DNA of 64,000 nucleotides from a virus. The position numbers and the translations under genes were made by a program. The notes beneath the pieces were generated by a model. That model saw only the letters and a list, made by a program, of their open reading frames with translations, did no database searches and was not told the DNA's origin. Below, one piece after another: positions 1 to 11,620 of this stretch (position 1 is its first letter; every line of letters starts with the position of its first letter). The stretch lies in IMG/VR virus record IMGVR_UViG_3300046694_000196, positions 32,001 to 96,000 of that record. One strand, 5' to 3'.

Positions 1-273
1 GACCGCGAGACGAAGTACGGAATGATCGTGCACGCCGAGATGAACGTCATCTACAACGCGTCACTGACCGGAGTATCACTCAAGGGGGCGACGCTGTACG
101 TGTCGGGGCTCCCTGTGTGCTCGACTTGTACGCTCGGAGTCATCCAGGCCGGCATCTCTCGCGTGGTCATCCGTTCGCGAGACATAAATAGGTCCGAGAA
201 ATGGAGAGCGTCCTGGGACAAGAGCAGCGAGCTGCTCAGAGAAGCGGGCGTAGCGGTAGTCGTAGTTGACTAG
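1..273 (+). CDS. cd: dCMP deaminase (5'-truncated by window edge)
   Basis: HAEMN and PVCSTC zinc-binding deaminase motifs; frame open from base 1. Confidence 0.9.
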   Translation, partial: DRETKYGMIVHAEMNVIYNASLTGVSLKGATLYVSGLPVCSTCTLGVIQAGISRVVIRSRDINRSEKWRASWDKSSELLREAGVAVVVVD

Positions 274-317
274 TCTCGGTTTCATGATAGTATGCAACAT
301 CATCGAGGACACTTGAA

Positions 318-1430
318 GTGACTACAAAGAAACTTTTGTTGACTGGTATGAACAAAAACCAGTGCGTGCGGAATTTCTTCCTGAAGCAGGAACTGAACGT
401 CGTCCCGTCTTCCTACGCCCTCATAAGGGCCTTCGAGGACATGGGCTACGAGGTAGACCAGAGGCCGGTGACCCTCGGGGAAGACCTGTCCCACTACGAC
501 GAGGTCGTAATCTACATCCACAGCCCGAAGGCCTTCTGTCAGTTCCTCTGGTCAGGTCTCTACGCCGTGCACGCCCGCCCGGACGCGATCTTCGCGTTCG
601 ATGACTGGCAGGTCAAGCAGATCATGTACTCGATCAAGTCGTACAACGACTACCTGATCGAAGAGGACTACGTCAAGGCCTACAAGGACTACTACTTCGA
701 CCTGTGGCAGGGCAGGGAGTCTCGAGAAGAGGTCGCCCTCTACTCGGCCCAGTACCGCGAGGCCTGCGAGCGCATCCTCCGCAAGGAGAACAGGCTGCTG
801 ATCTCGGCCTTCGCGGGCGGAAACGTCGACGCACTCAACCTGGACTGGAAGGGGAACGTGTTCACGTTCAACCCGAACCCGTACCACCTGAACCGCACCC
901 CCGAGAACAACTTCGGCGTCGAGAAAGTCAAGACGTTCGACGACTTCTTCGGCGGAGACGAAGAGGCGGTCAAGAAGCATGAGTGGAACTTCGCGTCGCT
1001 TGTCCAGAAGAAGACCCGCGCGTGGGTAGACAAGCAGGGAGTGAAGTCCTGGCCCATCAACTACTACGGCTCCAAGAGGAACGAGGAGAAGTGCGAGCGC
1101 CTGACAGAAGACCAGATGTGCCGCAAGTTCTCCACCCAGTGGGGCATCCTCTATCCGGGATACGGCAAGATGTGTGAGTCGGGCTGGTGGCGGGCGCGCC
1201 CTCTCCAGGTCGCGGACGCCGGCTCTATCCTGGTCGGTGAGAAACCCGAGCTTATGATCTACTACAGGGACGCGTCCCTCATCCAGAGCGCCTCCACCGT
1301 AGAGGGACTCACCGACGCGCAGCTAGAGAAGCTCGCGAGGTGGCAGCGCGAGGCCCTGTATGCGAACCACCCCCTCGACAAGTCGGTCACTCGGCGAGAA
1401 CTGGAGGCAGTCCTCGATGCACCCAGATAA
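318..1430 (+). CDS. putative GT-B fold glycosyltransferase, distantly T4 beta-glucosyltransferase-like
   Basis: 370 aa; N-terminal VPSSYALIRAFEDMGYEVD resembles T4 BGT VPSSETIYLFKVISEMGLNVD; C-terminal WWRARPLQVADAGSIL resembles a GT-B donor-binding region; next to UGM. Confidence 0.55.
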   Translation: MTTKKLLLTGMNKNQCVRNFFLKQELNVVPSSYALIRAFEDMGYEVDQRPVTLGEDLSHYDEVVIYIHSPKAFCQFLWSGLYAVHARPDAIFAFDDWQVKQIMYSIKSYNDYLIEEDYVKAYKDYYFDLWQGRESREEVALYSAQYREACERILRKENRLLISAFAGGNVDALNLDWKGNVFTFNPNPYHLNRTPENNFGVEKVKTFDDFFGGDEEAVKKHEWNFASLVQKKTRAWVDKQGVKSWPINYYGSKRNEEKCERLTEDQMCRKFSTQWGILYPGYGKMCESGWWRARPLQVADAGSILVGEKPELMIYYRDASLIQSASTVEGLTDAQLEKLARWQREALYANHPLDKSVTRRELEAVLDAPR

Positions 1431-2481
1431 GAACAGACGCATACTCGTGATCGGCGCTGGCTTCTCAGGAGCAGTCATCGCCCGTGAGCTAGCAGAGTTC
1501 GGGTGGGACGTGTACGTCATGGACAAGCGAGACCACGTTGCGGGCAACGCCTATGACTACGAGCACAACCTTGGGCCACGCGTACACAAGTACGGCCCGC
1601 ACCTTTTCCACACCAACAACGAGCGAGTCTGGGACTACCTCCAGCGCTTCGGCGACTGGGTCCCGTACAGGCACAGAGTGAAGGCCATGCTCAAGGACGG
1701 GCGCTTCGTGACGCTACCCGTCAACCGAGAGACCAAGGAGGTCGTGGGTGAAGAGAACGTGCTCGACGTGTTCTACAGGCCATACACACGAAAGATGTGG
1801 GGCGTGGAGCTTGACGAACTTGATCCTTCCGTTGCGAAGCGAGTGCCAGTCCGCGACGACGACAACGAGTTCTACTTCCCTGACGACGCATTCCAGGCGC
1901 TGCCGCGAGAAGGGTACACTCAACTGGTCAGGAATATCCTGGACCACGAGAACATCACTGTGGGACTAGGACGGAAATTCTTCAAAGGGTTGGAACAGTA
2001 CTACTTTCACGTCTTCAATTCTATGCCGATCGACGAGTACTATGACTTCTGTTTCGGCGAGCTCCCGTACAGGTCCATCAAGTTCAGTACCCGCTTCGTC
2101 TCTCACCCGAACTTCTTTGACGACCTCCCCGCCGCCACCGTGAACTTCACTGGAGACGGCCCGTTCACGCGAGTCACGTGCTGGAACAAGCTCCCGAACT
2201 CACCGCCGGCAGAGCACGACGTCTGGACGTACGAGCAGCCATGTGACTACCGCGACAACGACATGGAGCGGTACTACCCGGTGAAGGACCGAGACGGCAA
2301 GAACCGCGCCACGTACGAGCAGTACAAGGCGATCCCGAACGAGAAGACTACTTTCATCGGCAGGACCGGGCTCTACGCCTACCTCGACATGCACCAGGCA
2401 GTCAACATAGCACTACAGACCGCGAAGAAGTTCAATGACGCGCACAGCAGCGATATTCACGACCAGGGCGTTCAGCTCTGA
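1417..2481 (+). CDS. glf: UDP-galactopyranose mutase
   Basis: GAGFSG FAD-binding motif, HKYGPHLFHTN, YTRKMWG, ERYYP, GRTGLYAYLDM; ATG 1417 with GGAG RBS. Confidence 0.95.
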   Translation: MHPDKNRRILVIGAGFSGAVIARELAEFGWDVYVMDKRDHVAGNAYDYEHNLGPRVHKYGPHLFHTNNERVWDYLQRFGDWVPYRHRVKAMLKDGRFVTLPVNRETKEVVGEENVLDVFYRPYTRKMWGVELDELDPSVAKRVPVRDDDNEFYFPDDAFQALPREGYTQLVRNILDHENITVGLGRKFFKGLEQYYFHVFNSMPIDEYYDFCFGELPYRSIKFSTRFVSHPNFFDDLPAATVNFTGDGPFTRVTCWNKLPNSPPAEHDVWTYEQPCDYRDNDMERYYPVKDRDGKNRATYEQYKAIPNEKTTFIGRTGLYAYLDMHQAVNIALQTAKKFNDAHSSDIHDQGVQL

Positions 2482-3523
2482 CTTCACTTCCCTCTACGAG
2501 TCCATGCACTTCCTGAGGGAGTACGACAGGATAGTGTTCTACCACGCCTACGGCACCGACAAGGTGGTCGAGGCAGTCGAGAGACTCGGCCGCGTCGTCG
2601 TCTCTGAGGTAGTGCACACCAAGTCCTGGTTCGACCGGTGCGTATCCGGCGACTTTCCTACCTGGAGGCATTTCTATGAAGCTTTCGACCCTCACGTCCC
2701 GGAACGCGGGATTGATGACGTCTACCTCTTTGGCGCGCCTCTCTCAGACGGCGGAAAGCTCAAGAGGAAGCACAACGGTCTACAGAAGAACCTTGACAAC
2801 AACAAGTTCATCACCTTCGTCAGCGTCGCTAAGCATTACTTCACCGCTTACGCGGCTGTCAAGCTCGCTAACGTCACCGGAGCCGCTTTCCACGAGGTGT
2901 GCTATGACCCTGGAGAGAACTCTGTGGGGCAGCTCGTTGACGTCATACGACCGGTCTCTGTTCGCGTTTACCACGGCTACGACATAGCGCGCTTCGGCAT
3001 AGAGAAGCACCGTTTCTTCCAGGACGGCATGGCCCAGTCGCGGTCTTCTCCCTTCGATGACGACGATGAAGTCGACCACGACGTGGTCTTCGGCTACAGC
3101 TACATGACCAGGGACCGCCGAGCCTCCCACGAGTACGCTCAAGACGTCATCTCGGTCGTGCGGTCACTCCCGGGAGTCAGGTCTCGCTTCCTGGTGAAGA
3201 ACAAGGTCGAGGGCTACGACACGTCTGTGAGTCGTGAGGAGTACATGCGACTCATCCGCAAGTCACGGTTCACGTTCGTGGCGCCGGCGTACGAGCCAGG
3301 CGTCTTCTCGCCGTTCAGGTACATCGAGGCCGTCTTGTCGGGCTGCCTCCCCCTCGTCTTCGAGACCTGCGCATACAGAGAGTTCTTTGACTCGTGGGGC
3401 GTCCCCGTGGACTCCGTGCACGCGACGATAGTCAACCGTGGCAGCGTAGCGGCTGCACTAGAGATGGACGAGATGGACCGGCGGGCGCTGGTGGAGTACC
3501 TCCGCGCCAAGTTTCTCGCGTAG
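2435..3523 (+). CDS. putative GT-B glycosyltransferase
   Basis: C-terminal EEYMRLIRKSRFTFVAPAYEPGVFSPFRYIEAVLSGCLPLV is typical of GT-B donor-binding domains; overlaps glf. Confidence 0.6.
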   Translation: MTRTAAIFTTRAFSSDFTSLYESMHFLREYDRIVFYHAYGTDKVVEAVERLGRVVVSEVVHTKSWFDRCVSGDFPTWRHFYEAFDPHVPERGIDDVYLFGAPLSDGGKLKRKHNGLQKNLDNNKFITFVSVAKHYFTAYAAVKLANVTGAAFHEVCYDPGENSVGQLVDVIRPVSVRVYHGYDIARFGIEKHRFFQDGMAQSRSSPFDDDDEVDHDVVFGYSYMTRDRRASHEYAQDVISVVRSLPGVRSRFLVKNKVEGYDTSVSREEYMRLIRKSRFTFVAPAYEPGVFSPFRYIEAVLSGCLPLVFETCAYREFFDSWGVPVDSVHATIVNRGSVAAALEMDEMDRRALVEYLRAKFLA

Positions 3524-3573: not shown

Positions 3574-4758
3574 ATGAACGCAATGACTTGGTCCTCTATC
3601 GTCCCCCTCATCGGCGGCGAGACCATAGCCATGGAGAGGGTCTTCGGCAACCGCCCAGAAGAACTGCTCTCCTACTCCCCATTCGCTTCTAACGACGCGC
3701 ACATCGTGAACCACTACGACGGCGAGGTCCCCTACCGCCTGATCGACAAGGAAGAGTTCACCCCCCGCCGCGTAGACGTAGTCAACTCGGTCTGCCCCTG
3801 CGCAGGGCTCTCGTCTCTGTCTCCCACTTCCGCTGCGGACTCTAAGGTCAACGAGTGGATGTTCGAGTCGTCGAAATACGTCTTCGAGAACGTCAAGCCG
3901 ACCGTGCTCTGGGGAGAGAACGCCCCCCACTTCGCTACGAACAAGGGCACGCTGATCCGAGAACGGCTGCGAGACATGGCACTCGACCACGGGTACTCCA
4001 TGAGCGTCATGAAGACGAAGTCACTCGTGCACGGCCTGCCCCAGATCAGGACCAGGAGCTTCTACTTCTTCTGGCGAGGCATGGACGCGCCGCTCTTTGA
4101 CTACTACCACCGGCCGCACGTCAAGATAGAAGACCTCATCCGGGGAGTCAAGTCAAACTCCCAGAGAGAAGTCATCGGCCGGGGAAAACCGTCTGACAAC
4201 AAGTACCTCGAGTTCATCCTCGAGCACGTCCGCAGGCAGACTTTCCAGGAGTTCTATGACTCCCTGCAGAAGTCTGAGAGCGTCATCACGATCATCGAGC
4301 AAGAGTCCGACTGGGTCTCGTGCGCTGAGTGGATGGAGTCCAAGGGGTACGACCGCGAGGCCAAGTCGTCACGACGCCGCCAGGCCAAGCTCGACGACAA
4401 CAAGGGCTACATGAAGAAAGACCTGCTGTTCGCGAAGGACTACATCGGCGCGTTCGTCGGGCACCTCCCTCACTCCATCAGGCACCCCGACGAAGACCGC
4501 TTCATCGACTACCGCGAGGCCATGACCATCATGGGGCTCCCCGACGACTTCGAGCTGCTCGACCCGAAGCACAGCTCCAACCACATATGCCAGAACGTCC
4601 CGGTGCAGACCGCGACCGACATGGCCACGGAGGTCCGAGAAGTACTCCTCGGCAACAGGAGGTCCTCGGGGCACAGGTACGTGCTGCAGGACAACGTTCA
4701 CCAGAAAGTAGAAGAGACCCTCTTCCCCTCGAAGACACTCGTAGACTTCGCTGTCTGA
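3574..4758 (+). CDS. DNA cytosine-C5 methyltransferase (atypical motif I)
   Basis: CPCAGLS (motif IV), ENAP (VI), QIRTRSFY (VIII), YREAMTIMGLPDDF...QNVP (IX/X); motif I is PLIGG. Confidence 0.8.
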   Translation: MNAMTWSSIVPLIGGETIAMERVFGNRPEELLSYSPFASNDAHIVNHYDGEVPYRLIDKEEFTPRRVDVVNSVCPCAGLSSLSPTSAADSKVNEWMFESSKYVFENVKPTVLWGENAPHFATNKGTLIRERLRDMALDHGYSMSVMKTKSLVHGLPQIRTRSFYFFWRGMDAPLFDYYHRPHVKIEDLIRGVKSNSQREVIGRGKPSDNKYLEFILEHVRRQTFQEFYDSLQKSESVITIIEQESDWVSCAEWMESKGYDREAKSSRRRQAKLDDNKGYMKKDLLFAKDYIGAFVGHLPHSIRHPDEDRFIDYREAMTIMGLPDDFELLDPKHSSNHICQNVPVQTATDMATEVREVLLGNRRSSGHRYVLQDNVHQKVEETLFPSKTLVDFAV

Positions 4759-5304: not shown

Positions 5305-6288
5305 TTGCAATTCAACATTGAAATCGAGAAACTGAGAGAGTGCAAGCTCTTCGTGGCAGTGCCGATGTACGGCGGGATGTGCCACGGTAACTTCACTCGC
5401 TCCATCATGGACCTCACCGCGCTCTGTGCCCGCTACAGTGTCCACATGCGCACGTACTTCCTCTTCAACGAGTCCCTGATCAGCCGCGCGCGCGCGTACT
5501 GTGCCGACGAGTTCCTCCGCTCTGACTGCACCCACATGCTCTTCATCGACGCCGACATCACGTTCAACGCGAACGACGTCATCGCGATGATAGCGGTCCA
5601 GCTCATGGACCCCGAGAACAAGGACATCGTCGCGGCGGCTTACCCCAAGAAGTGCATCACCTGGGAGAAGATCAAGCTGGCAGTCGACAAGGGCTTCGCT
5701 GACGAGGACCCCAACAGGCTCGAGGACTTCGTGGGTGACTTCGTGTTCAACCCGGTGTCCGGCACTTCCATCCTGCTAAGTGAGCCCGCCGAGGTCGCCG
5801 AGGCCGGCACCGGCTTCATGCTCATCCCGCGCAACACGTTCGACCGCTTTAACGTGGCGTACCCCGAGTTCCGGTACCTGCCAGACCACGCGCGCAGCGA
5901 CAACTTCGACGGCACCCGCGAGATCACCATGTTCTTCGACTGCGTCATCGACAAGGACCGCAAGGAGTCTGAGTTCGAGGCGATGATGGACGACATCCTG
6001 GCACTAGAAGTAGGTTCTCCTGACGACGAGCTCGACGTCGAGAAACTGCAGGCCAAGGTCAAGGACATCCGTCTCCGTGAGAAGAACAGCTCGAAGAGGT
6101 ACCTGTCGGAGGACTACTACTTCTGCCAGAACGTCCGCAGGGCCGGCATGAAGGTGTGGATCTGTCCGTGGATCGAGCTGCAGCACAGCGGTTTCTACAC
6201 GTTCGGGGGCAAGCTCGCCGCGCTCGCCGCGATCGGCGCCTCCGCCACAGTCGACAAAGACGCACTAAAGAAGAGAGCCAAGGCATGA
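5305..6288 (+). CDS. GT-A-like glycosyltransferase conserved in T4-like phages
   Basis: LFVAVPMYGG, NESLISRAR, THMLFIDADI (DxD), RYLSEDYYFC; TTG start with AAGGA. Confidence 0.75.
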   Translation: MQFNIEIEKLRECKLFVAVPMYGGMCHGNFTRSIMDLTALCARYSVHMRTYFLFNESLISRARAYCADEFLRSDCTHMLFIDADITFNANDVIAMIAVQLMDPENKDIVAAAYPKKCITWEKIKLAVDKGFADEDPNRLEDFVGDFVFNPVSGTSILLSEPAEVAEAGTGFMLIPRNTFDRFNVAYPEFRYLPDHARSDNFDGTREITMFFDCVIDKDRKESEFEAMMDDILALEVGSPDDELDVEKLQAKVKDIRLREKNSSKRYLSEDYYFCQNVRRAGMKVWICPWIELQHSGFYTFGGKLAALAAIGASATVDKDALKKRAKA

Positions 6289-6482
6289 TACTGAAAGTGA
6301 TATCCGAAGAAGACGAGAACGACTTCGTCGAGTTTCGCGTAGAAGACGGGCTGGTCGAAGAGATCAGGGCCGAGCTCGGAGAAGACGCCAGCGAAGAAGA
6401 CATCGCGCGGCGAGTAGTAGAACTATTACTGGCCGAGGCCACCGAAGGAGAAGAAGATGAAGTTGACACAGTCGACGATTGA
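6285..6482 (+). CDS. acidic hypothetical protein
   Basis: ATG 6285 overlaps upstream stop; 65 aa. Confidence 0.65.
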   Translation: MILKVISEEDENDFVEFRVEDGLVEEIRAELGEDASEEDIARRVVELLLAEATEGEEDEVDTVDD

Positions 6483-6636
6483 GTATAGATTCGCCCTGAT
6501 CAACCACGCCCGAGACATACTCCGGGACGCCGGCGCGATCGATGGCTACCGATTTCACCCCGAACAGTACGAAGCCCACGTCTTGGCCCTCGCCGAGAAG
6601 ATCCACGCGTGGGTCGAGAAGGACCTGTCTGCATGA
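6457..6636 (+). CDS. hypothetical protein (59 aa, not in ORF track)
   Basis: MKLTQSTIEYRFALINHARDILRDAG...; GGAG RBS; stop overlaps gp45 ATG. Confidence 0.6.
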   Translation: MKLTQSTIEYRFALINHARDILRDAGAIDGYRFHPEQYEAHVLALAEKIHAWVEKDLSA

Positions 6637-7280
6637 AGCTATCCGACGAGACTCTCAACATCCTGAAGAACTTCGCGACGATCAACAAGGCGATCGAAGT
6701 GAAGGCCGGCAACGTGCTGGCAACTATCTCTCCCGCGAAGACCATCTTCGCCAAGACGACCGTCCCCGAGAACTTCGAAGTCGGCTTCGCTATCTACGAG
6801 CTACCGAAGTTCCTGGGCGCACTCAGCCTGTTCGGCGAGCCCACGCTGGACTTCAAGGACAAGTACGTCACCATCTCGGAGGGGTCGACGAAGATCCGAT
6901 ACACATACTGTGACCCTTCTACGATCGTCACCGCGCCGTCGAAGGAGATCAAGCTCCCCGACGTCGTCGCTTCCTTCGACGTCAAGTCGTCGAGCATCGC
7001 GGCGCTGATGAAGTCCCTGGGCGTCCTCGGCCTGCCTGAGATCATGGTGCACGGGGACGGCACTGCTATCTACCTGTCGGCGGCCAACTCGAAGAACCAG
7101 TCAGCCGACGAGTTCTCAGTGAAGGTCGCGGACTCCGAGGCGGAGTTCAAGGTCTACTTCAACAAGGAGAACTTCAAGCTCCTCGACCGTGACTACGAGG
7201 TCTCTGTGTCCAAGTCAGGCCTCGCGGAGTTCAAGTCGGGCGACCTGAAGTACTTCGTCATCGGGGCCGCTAACACGTGA
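6633..7280 (+). CDS. 45: sliding clamp
   Basis: MKLSDETLNILKNFATIN, FAIYELPKFL, IRYTYCDPSTI; adjacent to clamp loader. Confidence 0.95.
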   Translation: MKLSDETLNILKNFATINKAIEVKAGNVLATISPAKTIFAKTTVPENFEVGFAIYELPKFLGALSLFGEPTLDFKDKYVTISEGSTKIRYTYCDPSTIVTAPSKEIKLPDVVASFDVKSSSIAALMKSLGVLGLPEIMVHGDGTAIYLSAANSKNQSADEFSVKVADSEAEFKVYFNKENFKLLDRDYEVSVSKSGLAEFKSGDLKYFVIGAANT

Positions 7281-7609
7281 ACCGAGACGAGCTGAACTTC
7301 GTCGTAGAGTTCATTGACGCCATGGCCTCCCGCGGCGCGATCCGCGGGAGCGAACTGCTGAACGTGGGCTCCCTGCGTGCGCGGGCGCTCGAAGACATCA
7401 TGGAGATGAACGATGGAACTGAGCCAGGACCTGCGGGACATAGTCTGGGTCGAGAAGTACAGGCCGCAGACGATCGAGGACTGCATCCTGCCGGAAGCCC
7501 TGAAGGAGACGTTCCGGGGCTTCGTGAAGAAAGGGAACCTGCCGAACTTGCTCCTGCACGGCGGCCCCGGCATAGGAAAGACTACGGTAGCGAGGGCGAT
7601 GCTCCGTGA
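7277..7609 (+). CDS. small conserved phage protein (C-terminal extent uncertain)
   Basis: FIDAMASRGAIRGSELLNVGSLR N-terminus looks coding; 3' part overlaps gp44 by ~200 nt. Confidence 0.5.
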   Translation: MNRDELNFVVEFIDAMASRGAIRGSELLNVGSLRARALEDIMEMNDGTEPGPAGHSLGREVQAADDRGLHPAGSPEGDVPGLREEREPAELAPARRPRHRKDYGSEGDAP

Positions 7610-8372
7610 GCTGGACTCCGACTACATAGTAGTCAACGGGTCCCTCAACGGCAACATCGATACCCTCAGGAACGAGATCAAGGACTTCGCGTCGAGCGTG
7701 TCCCTGTTCAAGGCCGGCCGCAAGTACGTCATCCTGGACGAGGCCGACTACCTGAACGCCAACAGCGTACAGCCCGCCCTGCGCAACTTCATGGAGGAGT
7801 ACTCCAAGAACTGCGGCTTCATCCTGACGTGTAACTACAAGAACCGCATCATCGAGCCCCTGCACTCCAGGCTGGTCGGAGTAGACTTCTCTTCTTCCCC
7901 GAAGGAAGTGGACCAGCTCAAGTTCCAGTTCTTCAAGAGACTCAAGTTCATCCTGGAGAACGAGCGTGTCGCCTACGACAAGGCGGTGCTGGTCGAACTC
8001 ATCAAGAAGCACTTCCCCGACATGCGACGGGTCATCAACGAGGTCGAGCGGTACTCGGCCAACGGCGCGGTCGACTCCGGCATACTTGTCAGCCTGCTGG
8101 ACGACAACTTCGCGCGCCTGGTATCTGCACTCAAGGACAAGAAGTTCAACGAGATGAGGAAGTGGGTCGCAGAGAACTCACACCTGGACACCGCCGACGT
8201 CATCAGGAAGGTCTACGAGGCCGCTGACGGGCTTATGACTCCCCAGAGCATAGCGGCTTTCATCATCCTGGCACAGAAGTACCTCTACCAGTCGGCGTTC
8301 AGCTCTGACTCTGAGATCACGACCAGCGCCTTCCTCACAGAGACGATGATCGAGACGGAGTGGCTCGCGTGA
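7413..8372 (+). CDS. 44: clamp loader large subunit
   Basis: WVEKYRP, GGPGIGKT Walker A, ILDEAD, SRL, DMRR. Confidence 0.97.
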   Translation: MELSQDLRDIVWVEKYRPQTIEDCILPEALKETFRGFVKKGNLPNLLLHGGPGIGKTTVARAMLRELDSDYIVVNGSLNGNIDTLRNEIKDFASSVSLFKAGRKYVILDEADYLNANSVQPALRNFMEEYSKNCGFILTCNYKNRIIEPLHSRLVGVDFSSSPKEVDQLKFQFFKRLKFILENERVAYDKAVLVELIKKHFPDMRRVINEVERYSANGAVDSGILVSLLDDNFARLVSALKDKKFNEMRKWVAENSHLDTADVIRKVYEAADGLMTPQSIAAFIILAQKYLYQSAFSSDSEITTSAFLTETMIETEWLA

Positions 8373-8578
8373 TCAAGCGGTGCCTGTACTGCAGGAAGAT
8401 GCTGTGGAAGAAGTACGACGAGCTGCGGCTCGCGACTGCCGACGGCGAACGGGTATCGTACCTGTGCCTGCCACACGCAGACGAGATGATGAGGGAAGGA
8501 GACACCGTTGAGCAATCCGTTCGAGTGGGCCGCGGCGATGGGGACGACGAAGAAAGACCTGATCCGTTCGGCGACTGA
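8369..8578 (+). CDS. small Cys-containing hypothetical protein
   Basis: GTG overlaps gp44 stop; CLYC...CLPH; overlaps gp62 start. Confidence 0.45.
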   Translation: MIKRCLYCRKMLWKKYDELRLATADGERVSYLCLPHADEMMREGDTVEQSVRVGRGDGDDEERPDPFGD

Positions 8579-8897
8579 CCCAGAGGCTGCCGAGAAGTCC
8601 TACCCGGCCTTCATGGTCAACAGGGCTTTCTCCTACTACGCCGACACAGTGCTCCACGCCCAGGAGATGAACCGCGCCGGCGAGCTGCCCAACCTGATGC
8701 AGCACGACTACTACCTCCATTCACTCCGTGCCAAGAAGCGTTTCGCGAAGTGGCACAAGGCCGAGAAGGACGAGACCGTCGACCTGATCGCGCGGGCGTA
8801 CAGTATAAATATCCACGACGCGAGGGTCTACCTCTCGTTGATGTCGCCCGAAGACATCGAAGCCGTAAGAACAAGAATGGACACAGGCGGTCGATAA
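8508..8897 (+). CDS. 62: clamp loader small subunit
   Basis: YPAFMVNRAFSYYADTVLHAQEMN...DYYLHSLRAKKRFAKW. Confidence 0.93.
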   Translation: MSNPFEWAAAMGTTKKDLIRSATDPEAAEKSYPAFMVNRAFSYYADTVLHAQEMNRAGELPNLMQHDYYLHSLRAKKRFAKWHKAEKDETVDLIARAYSINIHDARVYLSLMSPEDIEAVRTRMDTGGR

Positions 8898-8898
8898 C

Positions 8899-9297
8899 AT
8901 GCACAACGACGTCTTTCGCGGGCTCGGAGTAAAGGTCACTCTGAAGGACCCCCAAGACTTCCTCAAGGTGATGGAGACACTGACCCGCATCGGGTTCGCT
9001 TCCAAGAAAGACAACACCCTCTACCAGTCCTGCCACATACTGCACAAACAGGGGCAGTACGCCATCATCCACTTCAAGGAGCTCTTCGAGCTGGACGGGA
9101 GGCCCTCTGAGGTCACCGAGTCCGACCGCGAGCGGCGGAACGCGATAGCGCACCTGCTCCACGAGTGGGGCCTGGTGGAAGTGGCTGCCGGCCAGGACGT
9201 CTCGGCCCTCGCCCCGATGTCACAGATCAAGGTCGTGGCGTTCAGGGACAAGAAGGACTGGAACCTCGTGGCGAAGTACTCCGTCGGGAGGAAGTGA
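8899..9297 (+). CDS. regA: translational repressor RegA
   Basis: DFLKVMETLTRIG, LYQSCHILHKQGQYAIIHFKELF. Confidence 0.97.
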   Translation: MHNDVFRGLGVKVTLKDPQDFLKVMETLTRIGFASKKDNTLYQSCHILHKQGQYAIIHFKELFELDGRPSEVTESDRERRNAIAHLLHEWGLVEVAAGQDVSALAPMSQIKVVAFRDKKDWNLVAKYSVGRK

Positions 9298-9923: not shown

Positions 9924-10382
9924 ATGAGAAAAGTTGAACCGTACCAGATATTCACGCTGTCGTCGAGCTATGCAGGAGACAAGGGAGTGTCCTTCTCTGT
10001 CTCGAGACTCAACGTTTCTGAAGTCTTCGACAGCGCAGCCGACGCATTGAACGCTATTGACTTGGAAATCGACGAAGTTTCTAACTTGTTCGAGCTGCTC
10101 AGGTTGAGCACCAAAGTCGCGGCTTCTTCACATCGTGGAACGGCCAACACAATAGCCACGAACAGTTCCATGATAGCAGACCTGCTGAAGATGCTGGTAG
10201 AGAAGACCAAAGGACTCCCTTTCTCTGCCTGGAAAGTGTGGTACGATGAAGAACTCGAGGGTACCTACCTCTACTACACCGGCTCTCATGCATATGACGC
10301 CGCGGTTCTGGAACAGAATGCCGGGCAGTTCGTCTTACACCCTGACTGCGAGAAGTACGTCAGGAAGATAGTTTTCAAGTGA
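9924..10382 (+). CDS. hypothetical protein
   Basis: 152-aa ORF, AT-richer codon usage than flanks. Confidence 0.7.
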   Translation: MRKVEPYQIFTLSSSYAGDKGVSFSVSRLNVSEVFDSAADALNAIDLEIDEVSNLFELLRLSTKVAASSHRGTANTIATNSSMIADLLKMLVEKTKGLPFSAWKVWYDEELEGTYLYYTGSHAYDAAVLEQNAGQFVLHPDCEKYVRKIVFK

Positions 10383-10397
10383 TGGAGAACGTTTGAT

Positions 10398-10712
10398 ATG
10401 TGCACAGTTAGCAACATCGGAGACTACGGCCGCCGTGAGTGGGACGAGTGGATCAAGTACCCTGGTAAGCTCAACCCGGTACCAGGCTACTACCCTCAGC
10501 CGGTAGTCACTCCCCCGAAGGACATCACCCGCGAGGAGTTCGAAGCACTCAAGAAGCGAGTCGAGGCCCTCCACGAGCTCCTCCTCGCAGCCAAGAAATA
10601 CGACGAGCAGACAGATCAGCCACACTGCGAGGCGGACGACAAAGTCGCGGTAATCAAGAAGATAGCCGAGTACTTCGGCGTCGACATGAAGGACGTCTTT
10701 GATCATGATTGA
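10398..10712 (+). CDS. hypothetical protein
   Basis: 104 aa with GGAG RBS. Confidence 0.75.
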   Translation: MCTVSNIGDYGRREWDEWIKYPGKLNPVPGYYPQPVVTPPKDITREEFEALKKRVEALHELLLAAKKYDEQTDQPHCEADDKVAVIKKIAEYFGVDMKDVFDHD

Positions 10713-11141: not shown

Positions 11142-11176
11142 CTAACCATAGACGGCAACACGGAAAGGAACCGATT

Positions 11177-11593
11177 ATGGAAAAGATCACAGCTTTCGAC
11201 AAGAAGAACCTCACCTCTCTCCGCAAGGAGATGGACGAGCTCCTGTCCAAGTACGGGCAGACCCTGAACCTCAACTTCCAGATCGGGTCGATGAGGTTCG
11301 GCCCCGGAGAAGTAGAGATGAAGGTGACCGCGAAGGTCGTCGGCGGCAAGGACAAGTACGCCGAGGCACTCGACTTCCACATCCAGATGCCCTGCTGGGG
11401 TAAAGACGGCAAGATAGTGGCCGCGAAACTCGCGGACGTCATCACCCTCAAGAACGACAAGGGCGACGAGCTCGTCGGCTACAACGGCAAGAAATACTCC
11501 AAGCCGTACATCTTCAAGTCGGGCCTCGACGGTAAGTCCTACGTCTGTGACGAGCGTTACGTCCTCCACTACTTCGGGAAGAAGCAGGCTTAA
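11177..11593 (+). CDS. hypothetical protein
   Basis: 138 aa, AAGGA RBS, downstream of early promoter. Confidence 0.8.
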   Translation: MEKITAFDKKNLTSLRKEMDELLSKYGQTLNLNFQIGSMRFGPGEVEMKVTAKVVGGKDKYAEALDFHIQMPCWGKDGKIVAAKLADVITLKNDKGDELVGYNGKKYSKPYIFKSGLDGKSYVCDERYVLHYFGKKQA

Positions 11594-11594
11594 G

Positions 11595-11620
11595 GATAAA
11601 TACTTCGAGAACAACGGAGT
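11595..11620 (+). promoter_or_regulatory. late promoter plus RBS hairpin
   Basis: GATAAATA 11595-11602; ACTTCG/CGGAGT stem covers GGAG of the 11626 gene. Confidence 0.55.

Follow-up and report, generated by a model that had tools for sequence, protein, structure and literature searches.

A BGT-like GT-B protein encoded beside a UDP-galactopyranose mutase in a T4-like phage: a probable sugar transferase for 5-hydroxymethylcytosine in DNA

Which acceptor and which sugar donor are served by a glycosyltransferase (GT) that a T4-like phage encodes directly upstream of a UDP-galactopyranose mutase (Glf; UDP, uridine diphosphate)? The question is raised by a stretch of 64,000 nucleotides, in the following called the window, which comprises bases 32001-96000 of the 126,343-bp IMG/VR virus record IMGVR_UViG_3300046694_000196. 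The record is about 73% complete; the source genome is that of an uncultured T4-like phage with about 59% G+C, and its replication backbone (gp47, gp46, deformylase, gp45, gp44, gp62, regA) is like that of Caulobacter phage Cr30, Sinorhizobium phage phiM12 and Stenotrophomonas phage DLP6. We read the protein as a GT-B enzyme of the type of the T4 beta-glucosyltransferase (BGT), which would act after replication on 5-hydroxymethylcytosine (5hmC) in the phage's own double-stranded DNA, most likely with UDP-galactofuranose (UDP-Galf) as the donor, and we assign this reading a probability of roughly 0.6. Its direct basis consists of the gene itself, the fold of the protein with its conserved motifs, and the linkages and domain fusions seen in genomes. 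A preliminary description of the window, made from the sequence alone, had already seen in this protein the likely enzyme of the first sugar, and it is indeed the best candidate in this phage for placing the first sugar on the modified cytosine.

The relation to T4 BGT rests on the fold and on profile-profile comparison, because direct sequence searches came back empty. The protein matches no Pfam family at E <= 0.1, the BGT model PF09198 included, and no NCBIfam family; a Pfam scan of 63 relatives returned zero families; neither phmmer nor a 63-sequence profile found a sequence match among the PDB chains, and a profile of 25 BGT homologues found nothing in the phage record. The AlphaFold2 model built on 63 relatives (predicted local distance difference test, pLDDT, 94.7; predicted template modelling score, pTM, 0.91) has the two-Rossmann GT-B fold, and T4 BGT is its best solved structure both in Foldseek (1qkj, E 5e-6) and in VIA-align (1j39, Z 17.3, root-mean-square deviation 3.6, 293 aligned residues), followed in the latter by glycogen synthase (Z 15.3) and the T4 alpha-glucosyltransferase (AGT, Z 14.9). 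In a feature search of the ESM Atlas, likewise, one of the nearest named clusters was viral and carried PF09198. At the level of profiles, the N-terminal 71 columns of the family align with T4 BGT (E 1.2e-3); against an alignment of the 25 BGT homologues, hhalign gave 89% probability and E 2e-6 over the C-terminal domain in local mode, and 95% probability and E 7e-9 over 301 columns in global mode. The resemblance, at first proposed by eye for the N-terminus, is therefore real at the family level and over the whole length, but the peptide then quoted, VPSSYALIRAFEDMGYEVD, is not significant alone: its region forms the best BLASTP segment against T4 BGT, with 13 of 37 residues identical and E 0.05 in a single comparison, and the VPSS within it is kept only in the close clade; the profile comparison with T4 BGT aligns this stretch as well.

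The conserved residues point in the same direction. In the global alignment, Asp-Asp-Trp 95-97 falls on Thr99-Asp100 of BGT, with Asp96, the predicted catalytic base, on the catalytic Asp100; in the local alignment, Arg294 falls on the phosphate-binding Arg269, Gly251 on Gly214 and Gln297 on Glu272, and the GSGWWRxR motif to which Arg294 belongs is predicted to start the UDP-phosphate-binding helix. These correspondences come from alignment and not from an inspected three-dimensional superposition. The active-site motifs are kept in every branch of the family, fusion proteins included. The protein thus shares with BGT (CAZy GT63, PF09198) a length of about 350-370 residues, the two-Rossmann GT-B fold, the aligned Asp100/Arg269 and a gene position beside that of a gp42-type deoxycytidine monophosphate (dCMP) hydroxymethylase in a T4-like phage. 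It differs from BGT in its sequence (identity about 12%), in its own invariant motifs (GED-LS.YD, DDWQ, GSGWWRxR), in its occurrence in fusion with C5-methylase domains, which is never seen in BGT, and in its coupling to Glf, so that the donor is probably a furanose and not UDP-glucose.

The open reading frame (ORF) has the coordinates and the start given in the preliminary description. GTG318 is the right start, since it is preceded by a Shine-Dalgarno sequence and since the N-terminus read from it (..KKLLLTGMNKNQC) agrees with the family consensus MKKILITGMNxxQC; the public ORF call P0002, which begins at ATG348 and counts 360 amino acids, therefore misses the first beta-strand. A word-index search found 649 relatives of the transferase; the family counts 441 clusters at 50% identity, and the nearest relative is 77% identical. 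The full length matches phrog_14998, a family of unknown function, with E 2.7e-26 (residues 5-365 on profile positions 2-356 of 358).

As to the acceptor, the first indication is given by the thymidylate-synthase homologue of gp42 type encoded 2 kb upstream of the transferase, which matches T4 gp42 with E 4e-67 and has kept the catalytic DFICTN as well as the Asp (KND) that specifies dCMP. Synthases of 5-hydroxy-dCMP are marked by an exchange of Asp169 for Asn (Lee et al. 2026, PMC13326640). In our alignment of the synthases, the enzymes of the window phage, T4, Erwinia phage FBB1, phiAS4, the actinobacterial phage DSL-LC01 and the environmental relatives read RSND, as hydroxymethylases do, and RB69 gp48, RL38J1 gp216 and the enzyme of Morganella phage Rgz1 read RSQN, as 5-hydroxycytosine synthases do. 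Because its synthase reads RSND, the window phage is predicted to make 5hmC and not 5-hydroxycytosine. A second indication comes from phage C48C1 (Kyanoviridae, OQ984149.1; locus L001, positions 5580-9027), whose operon has the order Tet_JBP dioxygenase, transferase homologue, Glf. The dioxygenase domain, directly upstream of the transferase, scores above the cut-off (E 3.3e-17), and a thymidylate-synthase homologue was not found in C48C1; with this operon, a sugar-modified base of the same kind would be reached after replication, the target being either 5hmC or 5hmU.

Furthermore, 12 of the 13 family representatives of at least 820 amino acids are fusions in which a C5 DNA methylase domain stands N-terminal of the transferase domain (P0153, P0168, P0176, P0184, P0186, P0189, P0197, P0202, P0205, P0223, P0259 and P0263). 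Two of these C5-methylase fusions have a UDG domain between the two parts, LAGLIDADG inteins occur in two, and one fusion adjoins genes for a thymidylate-synthase homologue, a MazG-like protein and a DUF1599 protein in a PolA-type phage. The fusions were found by an exhaustive search of the representatives; a word-index search for fused forms returned none. Being fused to base-flipping domains and placed next to either route to a 5-hydroxymethylpyrimidine, the family is most simply understood as DNA transferases for 5-hydroxymethylpyrimidine.

Linkage was counted in 80 related IMG/VR loci, a partner being scored within 10 kb of the transferase, with most gaps caused by contig ends. The gp42-type gene was found in 71 of them, so that the homologues are linked to base-modification genes; the C5-methyltransferase-like gene, the most constant partner of the transferase, was present in 74, the GT-A-like gene in 64, the dCMP deaminase in 60, DUF1599 in 56, Glf in 49 and the GT47-like gene in 4.

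The preliminary description had left the choice between nucleotide and DNA as the acceptor. The C5-methylase fusions, the TET/JBP neighbour and the structural matches to BGT and AGT favour DNA, and the free nucleotide is the less favoured of the two; we know of no pathway for glycosylated deoxynucleoside triphosphates. The same fusions to DNA C5-methylase and UDG-type DNA-binding domains, the position next to TET/JBP, which acts on DNA, and the constant place among replication genes beside a gp42-type enzyme also argue against any acceptor other than DNA, be it free 5hm-dCMP or 5hm-dCTP, a virion protein or a host surface polymer. We hold such an acceptor to be highly improbable, even if a GT-B fold is silent on the acceptor and phages have many GT-B genes away from base-modification clusters (Pyle et al. 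2023, 10.1101/2023.12.21.572611).

The donor is indicated by Glf, whose gene lies immediately next to a family member in five lineages: the clade of the window, Aeromonas phages (all 19 records, plus IME13), Erwinia phage FBB1, C48C1 and DSL-LC01. The gene order differs among these five, and in a quick maximum-likelihood tree rooted on the fusion proteins the Glf-linked members stand on deep branches, a placement subject to long branches and to the choice of the root. In the window, the Glf start listed at ATG1360 is probably too early, with homologues aligning only from ORF residue 21-27 onward, and the 14-nt overlap between the transferase gene and a glf gene starting at ATG1417 implies translational coupling. 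A phage-encoded Glf has previously been proposed as the supplier of UDP-Galf for galactosyl-5-hydroxycytosine in Rhizobium phage RL38J1 (Lee et al. 2026, PMC13326640). That pathway (Glf gp84 with the glycosyltransferases gp215, gp151 and gp237) shares with ours a proposed Glf-fed, base-proximal galactose on a modified cytosine made by a thymidylate-synthase homologue, but its acceptor is 5-hydroxycytosine (RSQN) where the window phage is of the hmC type (RSND), and the two Glf proteins are about 31% identical. Two RL38J1 enzymes, gp215 (galactosyltransferase 1) and gp237 (glucosyltransferase 3), were tried as homologues of the transferase and rejected, as hhalign aligned short stretches only (E 0.5 and 0.042, respectively).

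From the above we infer the acceptor, the donor, the catalytic roles of single residues and the stereochemistry of the following scheme. The upstream MazG-like dCTPase, the DUF1599 protein, the gp42-type dCMP hydroxymethylase and the dCMP deaminase would exchange deoxycytidine for 5-hydroxymethyldeoxycytidine at the level of nucleotides. After replication, the transferase would bind the DNA in the cleft that separates its two Rossmann domains. Asp96 would act there as the base on the hydroxymethyl oxygen, and the GSGWWRxR helix (Arg294) would hold the UDP-sugar, from which the sugar would pass to the DNA with inversion. UDP-Galf would be provided from the host's UDP-galactopyranose by the translationally coupled Glf, and the product would be galactofuranosyl-5hmC.

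Several points weigh against this reading. The pairwise similarity to BGT is not significant and PF09198 is unmatched; the ribose-binding Glu272 of BGT is aligned with a Gln; and the role of a C5-methylase-type enzyme in a phage that replaces cytosine by 5hmC is unexplained and may alter the pathway. Characterised UDP-Galf transferases are mostly GT-A enzymes, and one well-supported environmental clade of 20 relatives has the transferase without Glf, from which it follows that the family is not strictly dependent on Galf and that the donor may vary by clade. The last two points, together with a GT47-like gene that overlaps the end of glf in the window, could also be accommodated if the enzyme were a DNA 5hmC transferase using a pyranose donor of the host (UDP-glucose or UDP-galactose) as T4 BGT does, with Glf serving a second, furanose-transferring enzyme of GT47-like or GT-A-like type. 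We consider this rather unlikely, given how poorly the two enzymes that would then use the furanose follow Glf: the GT47-like gene, a clade-specific extra of the window's own small clade, is found in only 4 of the 49 Glf-bearing loci, and the GT-A-like gene, which is missing from the Aeromonas, Erwinia, C48C1 and DSL-LC01 phages, was rejected as a member of the module because it belongs to the backbone of Cr30, phiM12 and DLP6, all of which are without Glf, the gp42-type enzyme and the transferase. In FBB1 and C48C1, moreover, no other transferase lies nearby and the family member is the sole candidate beside Glf. UDP-Galf is therefore the most likely donor here, based on the adjacency of Glf in five lineages and on the poorer showing of the other candidate transferases.

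A further point of this kind comes from the arabinose systems. Morganella phage Rgz1 (OK499989.1) encodes in gp40 a clear member of the family (E 1.7e-44). The genes on its two sides are those for an arabinose-5-phosphate isomerase and for an NTP-transferase protein, and a gene for a peptidase of U32 type follows three genes later. This is the setting of the RB69-type arabinose cluster, and family members occupy the equivalent cluster in Morganella and Providencia phages. Rgz1 also possesses an RB69p047-like protein next to an RSQN-type synthase, and since it carries both a family member and an RB69p047-like transferase, the role in adding the first sugar cannot be extended to the family as a whole; in Rgz1, the family member may work on a different acceptor or come in only at a later sugar. 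The coexistence with an RB69p047-like first arabinosyltransferase would fit an enzyme of the second step, which extends a sugar already attached to the base in the manner of the beta-glucosyl-HMC-alpha-glucosyltransferase of T2 and T6 or of RB69 gp3. For the window protein this is improbable in our view, as BGT and AGT, its best neighbours in structure, work on the base itself, and no other dedicated transferase is linked to the family member in the 20 relatives without Glf, in FBB1 or in C48C1. As a separate observation, these genes of Rgz1 suggest multi-arabinosylated DNA made by a set of transferases unlike that of RB69.

A likeness to a protein near gp42 in RB69, which the preliminary description had mentioned, was not borne out. 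RB69 is not among the tblastn matches, and RB69p046 and RB69p047 (arabinosyltransferase 1, RB69p046:47, DLP3 gp79; PMC13326640) were rejected as homologues, the family profile giving hhalign E values of 0.3-0.4 (0.29 with RB69p047 and 0.4 with RB69p046). The arabinosyl-5-hydroxycytosine system of RB69 and DLP3 (PMC13326640) is also a case of cytosine glycosylation with a furanose-type sugar in T4-like phages, but differs from the window phage in the synthase signature and in the genes for sugar supply.

Phage GT-B enzymes with BGT-like predicted folds have been shown to glycosylate 5hmC in DNA, and such genes frequently occur in linkage with those for thymidylate-synthase homologues, gp45 and dCMP deaminase (Pyle et al. 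2023, 10.1101/2023.12.21.572611). The GT53, GT66 and GT94 enzymes of the 5mYOX/ThyS clusters in that study match T4 BGT in Foldseek with E 1e-5 to 1e-7, the same range as our protein, the likeness being compared by Foldseek E only; they add heptose or a Kdo-like sugar, and the study reports neither coupling to Glf nor a product with Galf. Enzymes of this class are thus already known from T4 BGT and from these GT-B proteins. What is new is a distinct, unannotated sequence family, a probable furanose donor and an unexplained obligate partner of C5-methyltransferase-like type. No published account of Galf on 5hmC or of methylase-transferase fusions was found in a literature search of incomplete coverage.

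Members of the family occur in cultured phages (Aeromonas, Erwinia, Morganella, Providencia, Gordonia and actinobacterial phages) and in hundreds of environmental T4-like phages. In the review of Petrov et al. (2010, PMC2993671), the Aeromonas phages 25, 31 and 44RR are listed with genes 42 and 56 but with no glucosyltransferase; Aeromonas phage 25 carries the transferase-Glf pair, which therefore fills the gap. For the family in general, we tentatively propose, at somewhat less than even odds, that its members are DNA furanosyltransferases giving the undescribed base 5-(galactofuranosyl-oxymethyl)cytosine, that they are the 'missing' glycosyltransferases of gp42 phages such as Aeromonas phage 25, and that the pairing or fusion with a C5-methyltransferase-like protein stands for a new two-enzyme mechanism on DNA, in which the partner, for example, flips or covalently activates hmC. 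For a phage, glycosylated cytosines make the difference between escape from restriction enzymes and CRISPR nucleases and capture by modification-dependent nucleases. Should UDP-Galf be the donor, a new natural base of DNA would result and the enzyme would be a tool for furanose labelling of 5hmC, and the cultured Aeromonas and Erwinia phages with the same gene pair make the prediction directly testable.

The features of the locus are compiled in Table 1. The genes for hmC and its sugar form an inserted island of about 12 kb, with the deformylase gene on one side and the GT-A-like gene on the other. Upstream of the window lie the genes for a MazG-like pyrophosphohydrolase, a DUF1599 (Nmad1) protein and a 234-residue thymidylate-synthase homologue. 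TET/JBP and sugar epimerase genes were not found in the 126-kb record, which is about 73% complete (the TET search was made without a positive control), and no UDG-like gene adjoins the transferase in the window phage.

Table 1. Features at the transferase locus; positions refer to the window.
Feature	Position	Strand	Remarks
dCMP deaminase gene, 3' part	1..273	+	upstream neighbour; start of the gene 278 nt ahead of the window; whole ORF matches Pfam dCMP_cyt_deam_1 with E 1.2e-15
Sigma-70-like promoter candidate, TTGACT, 16 nt, TG-TAGTAT	266..293	+	consensus scan, 9/12 matches, extended -10 TG; pattern match only
Shine-Dalgarno sequence GAGGA	305..309	+	8 nt 5' of GTG318, read from the sequence
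BGT-like GT-B glycosyltransferase gene	318..1430	+	GTG start, 370 amino acids; phrog_14998
Peptide VPSSYALIRAFEDMGYEVD of the preliminary description	402..458	+	residues 29-47; helix 1 and strand 2 of the N-terminal Rossmann domain
Asp95-Asp96-Trp97 codons (DDW motif)	600..608	+	Asp96 (D86 of P0002) invariant or near-invariant in the family
Trp290-Trp291-Arg292-Ala293-Arg294 codons (GSGWWRxR motif)	1185..1199	+	invariant in the family, fusion proteins included
UDP-galactopyranose mutase (Glf)	1417..2481	+	Pfam GLF, E 5.7e-48; likely true start ATG1417, Shine-Dalgarno sequence GGAGG at 1403-1407
Second GT-B-like protein (GT47-like)	2435..3523	+	weak GT47 and Glyco_trans_1_2 matches, Pfam E 3.2e-5 and 8.7e-3, both below the cut-off
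C5 cytosine methyltransferase-like protein	3574..4758	+	Pfam DNA_methylase, E 5.9e-14; motifs PC(A), EN(A), QxRxR and QNVP kept
GT-A-like protein, phrog_1574	5305-6288		between gp46 and gp45 in Cr30, phiM12 and DLP6

The interval from the gp42-type gene to that of the dCMP deaminase contains genes for a DUF4326 protein and for a homologue of T4 gp30.3 (NADAR-like) (locus L005, positions 10266-10523 and 11152-11601), 1.7 and 0.4 kb before the start of the window. In Aeromonas phages, an ORF of 348 amino acids (phiAS4 ORF27; locus L003, positions 7118-8164) follows directly 3' of the transferase; it has a faint N-terminal likeness to the family and no Pfam match, and may be a second GT-B enzyme. 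Paralogy of the transferase was rejected both with this ORF (E 0.05) and with the GT47-like protein of the window (E 0.14).

Finally, a relative of 419 amino acids (P0145; locus L097, positions 8001-9260) is encoded on a 2.35-Mb contig of the assembly GCA_002844615.3. It has kept the DDWQ and GSGWWRAR motifs and is surrounded by genes for a cytochrome P450, for a patatin and for an adenylate cyclase of fungal type with RA, LRR, PP2C and cyclase domains; it looks like a eukaryotic copy of the phage DNA-transferase family.

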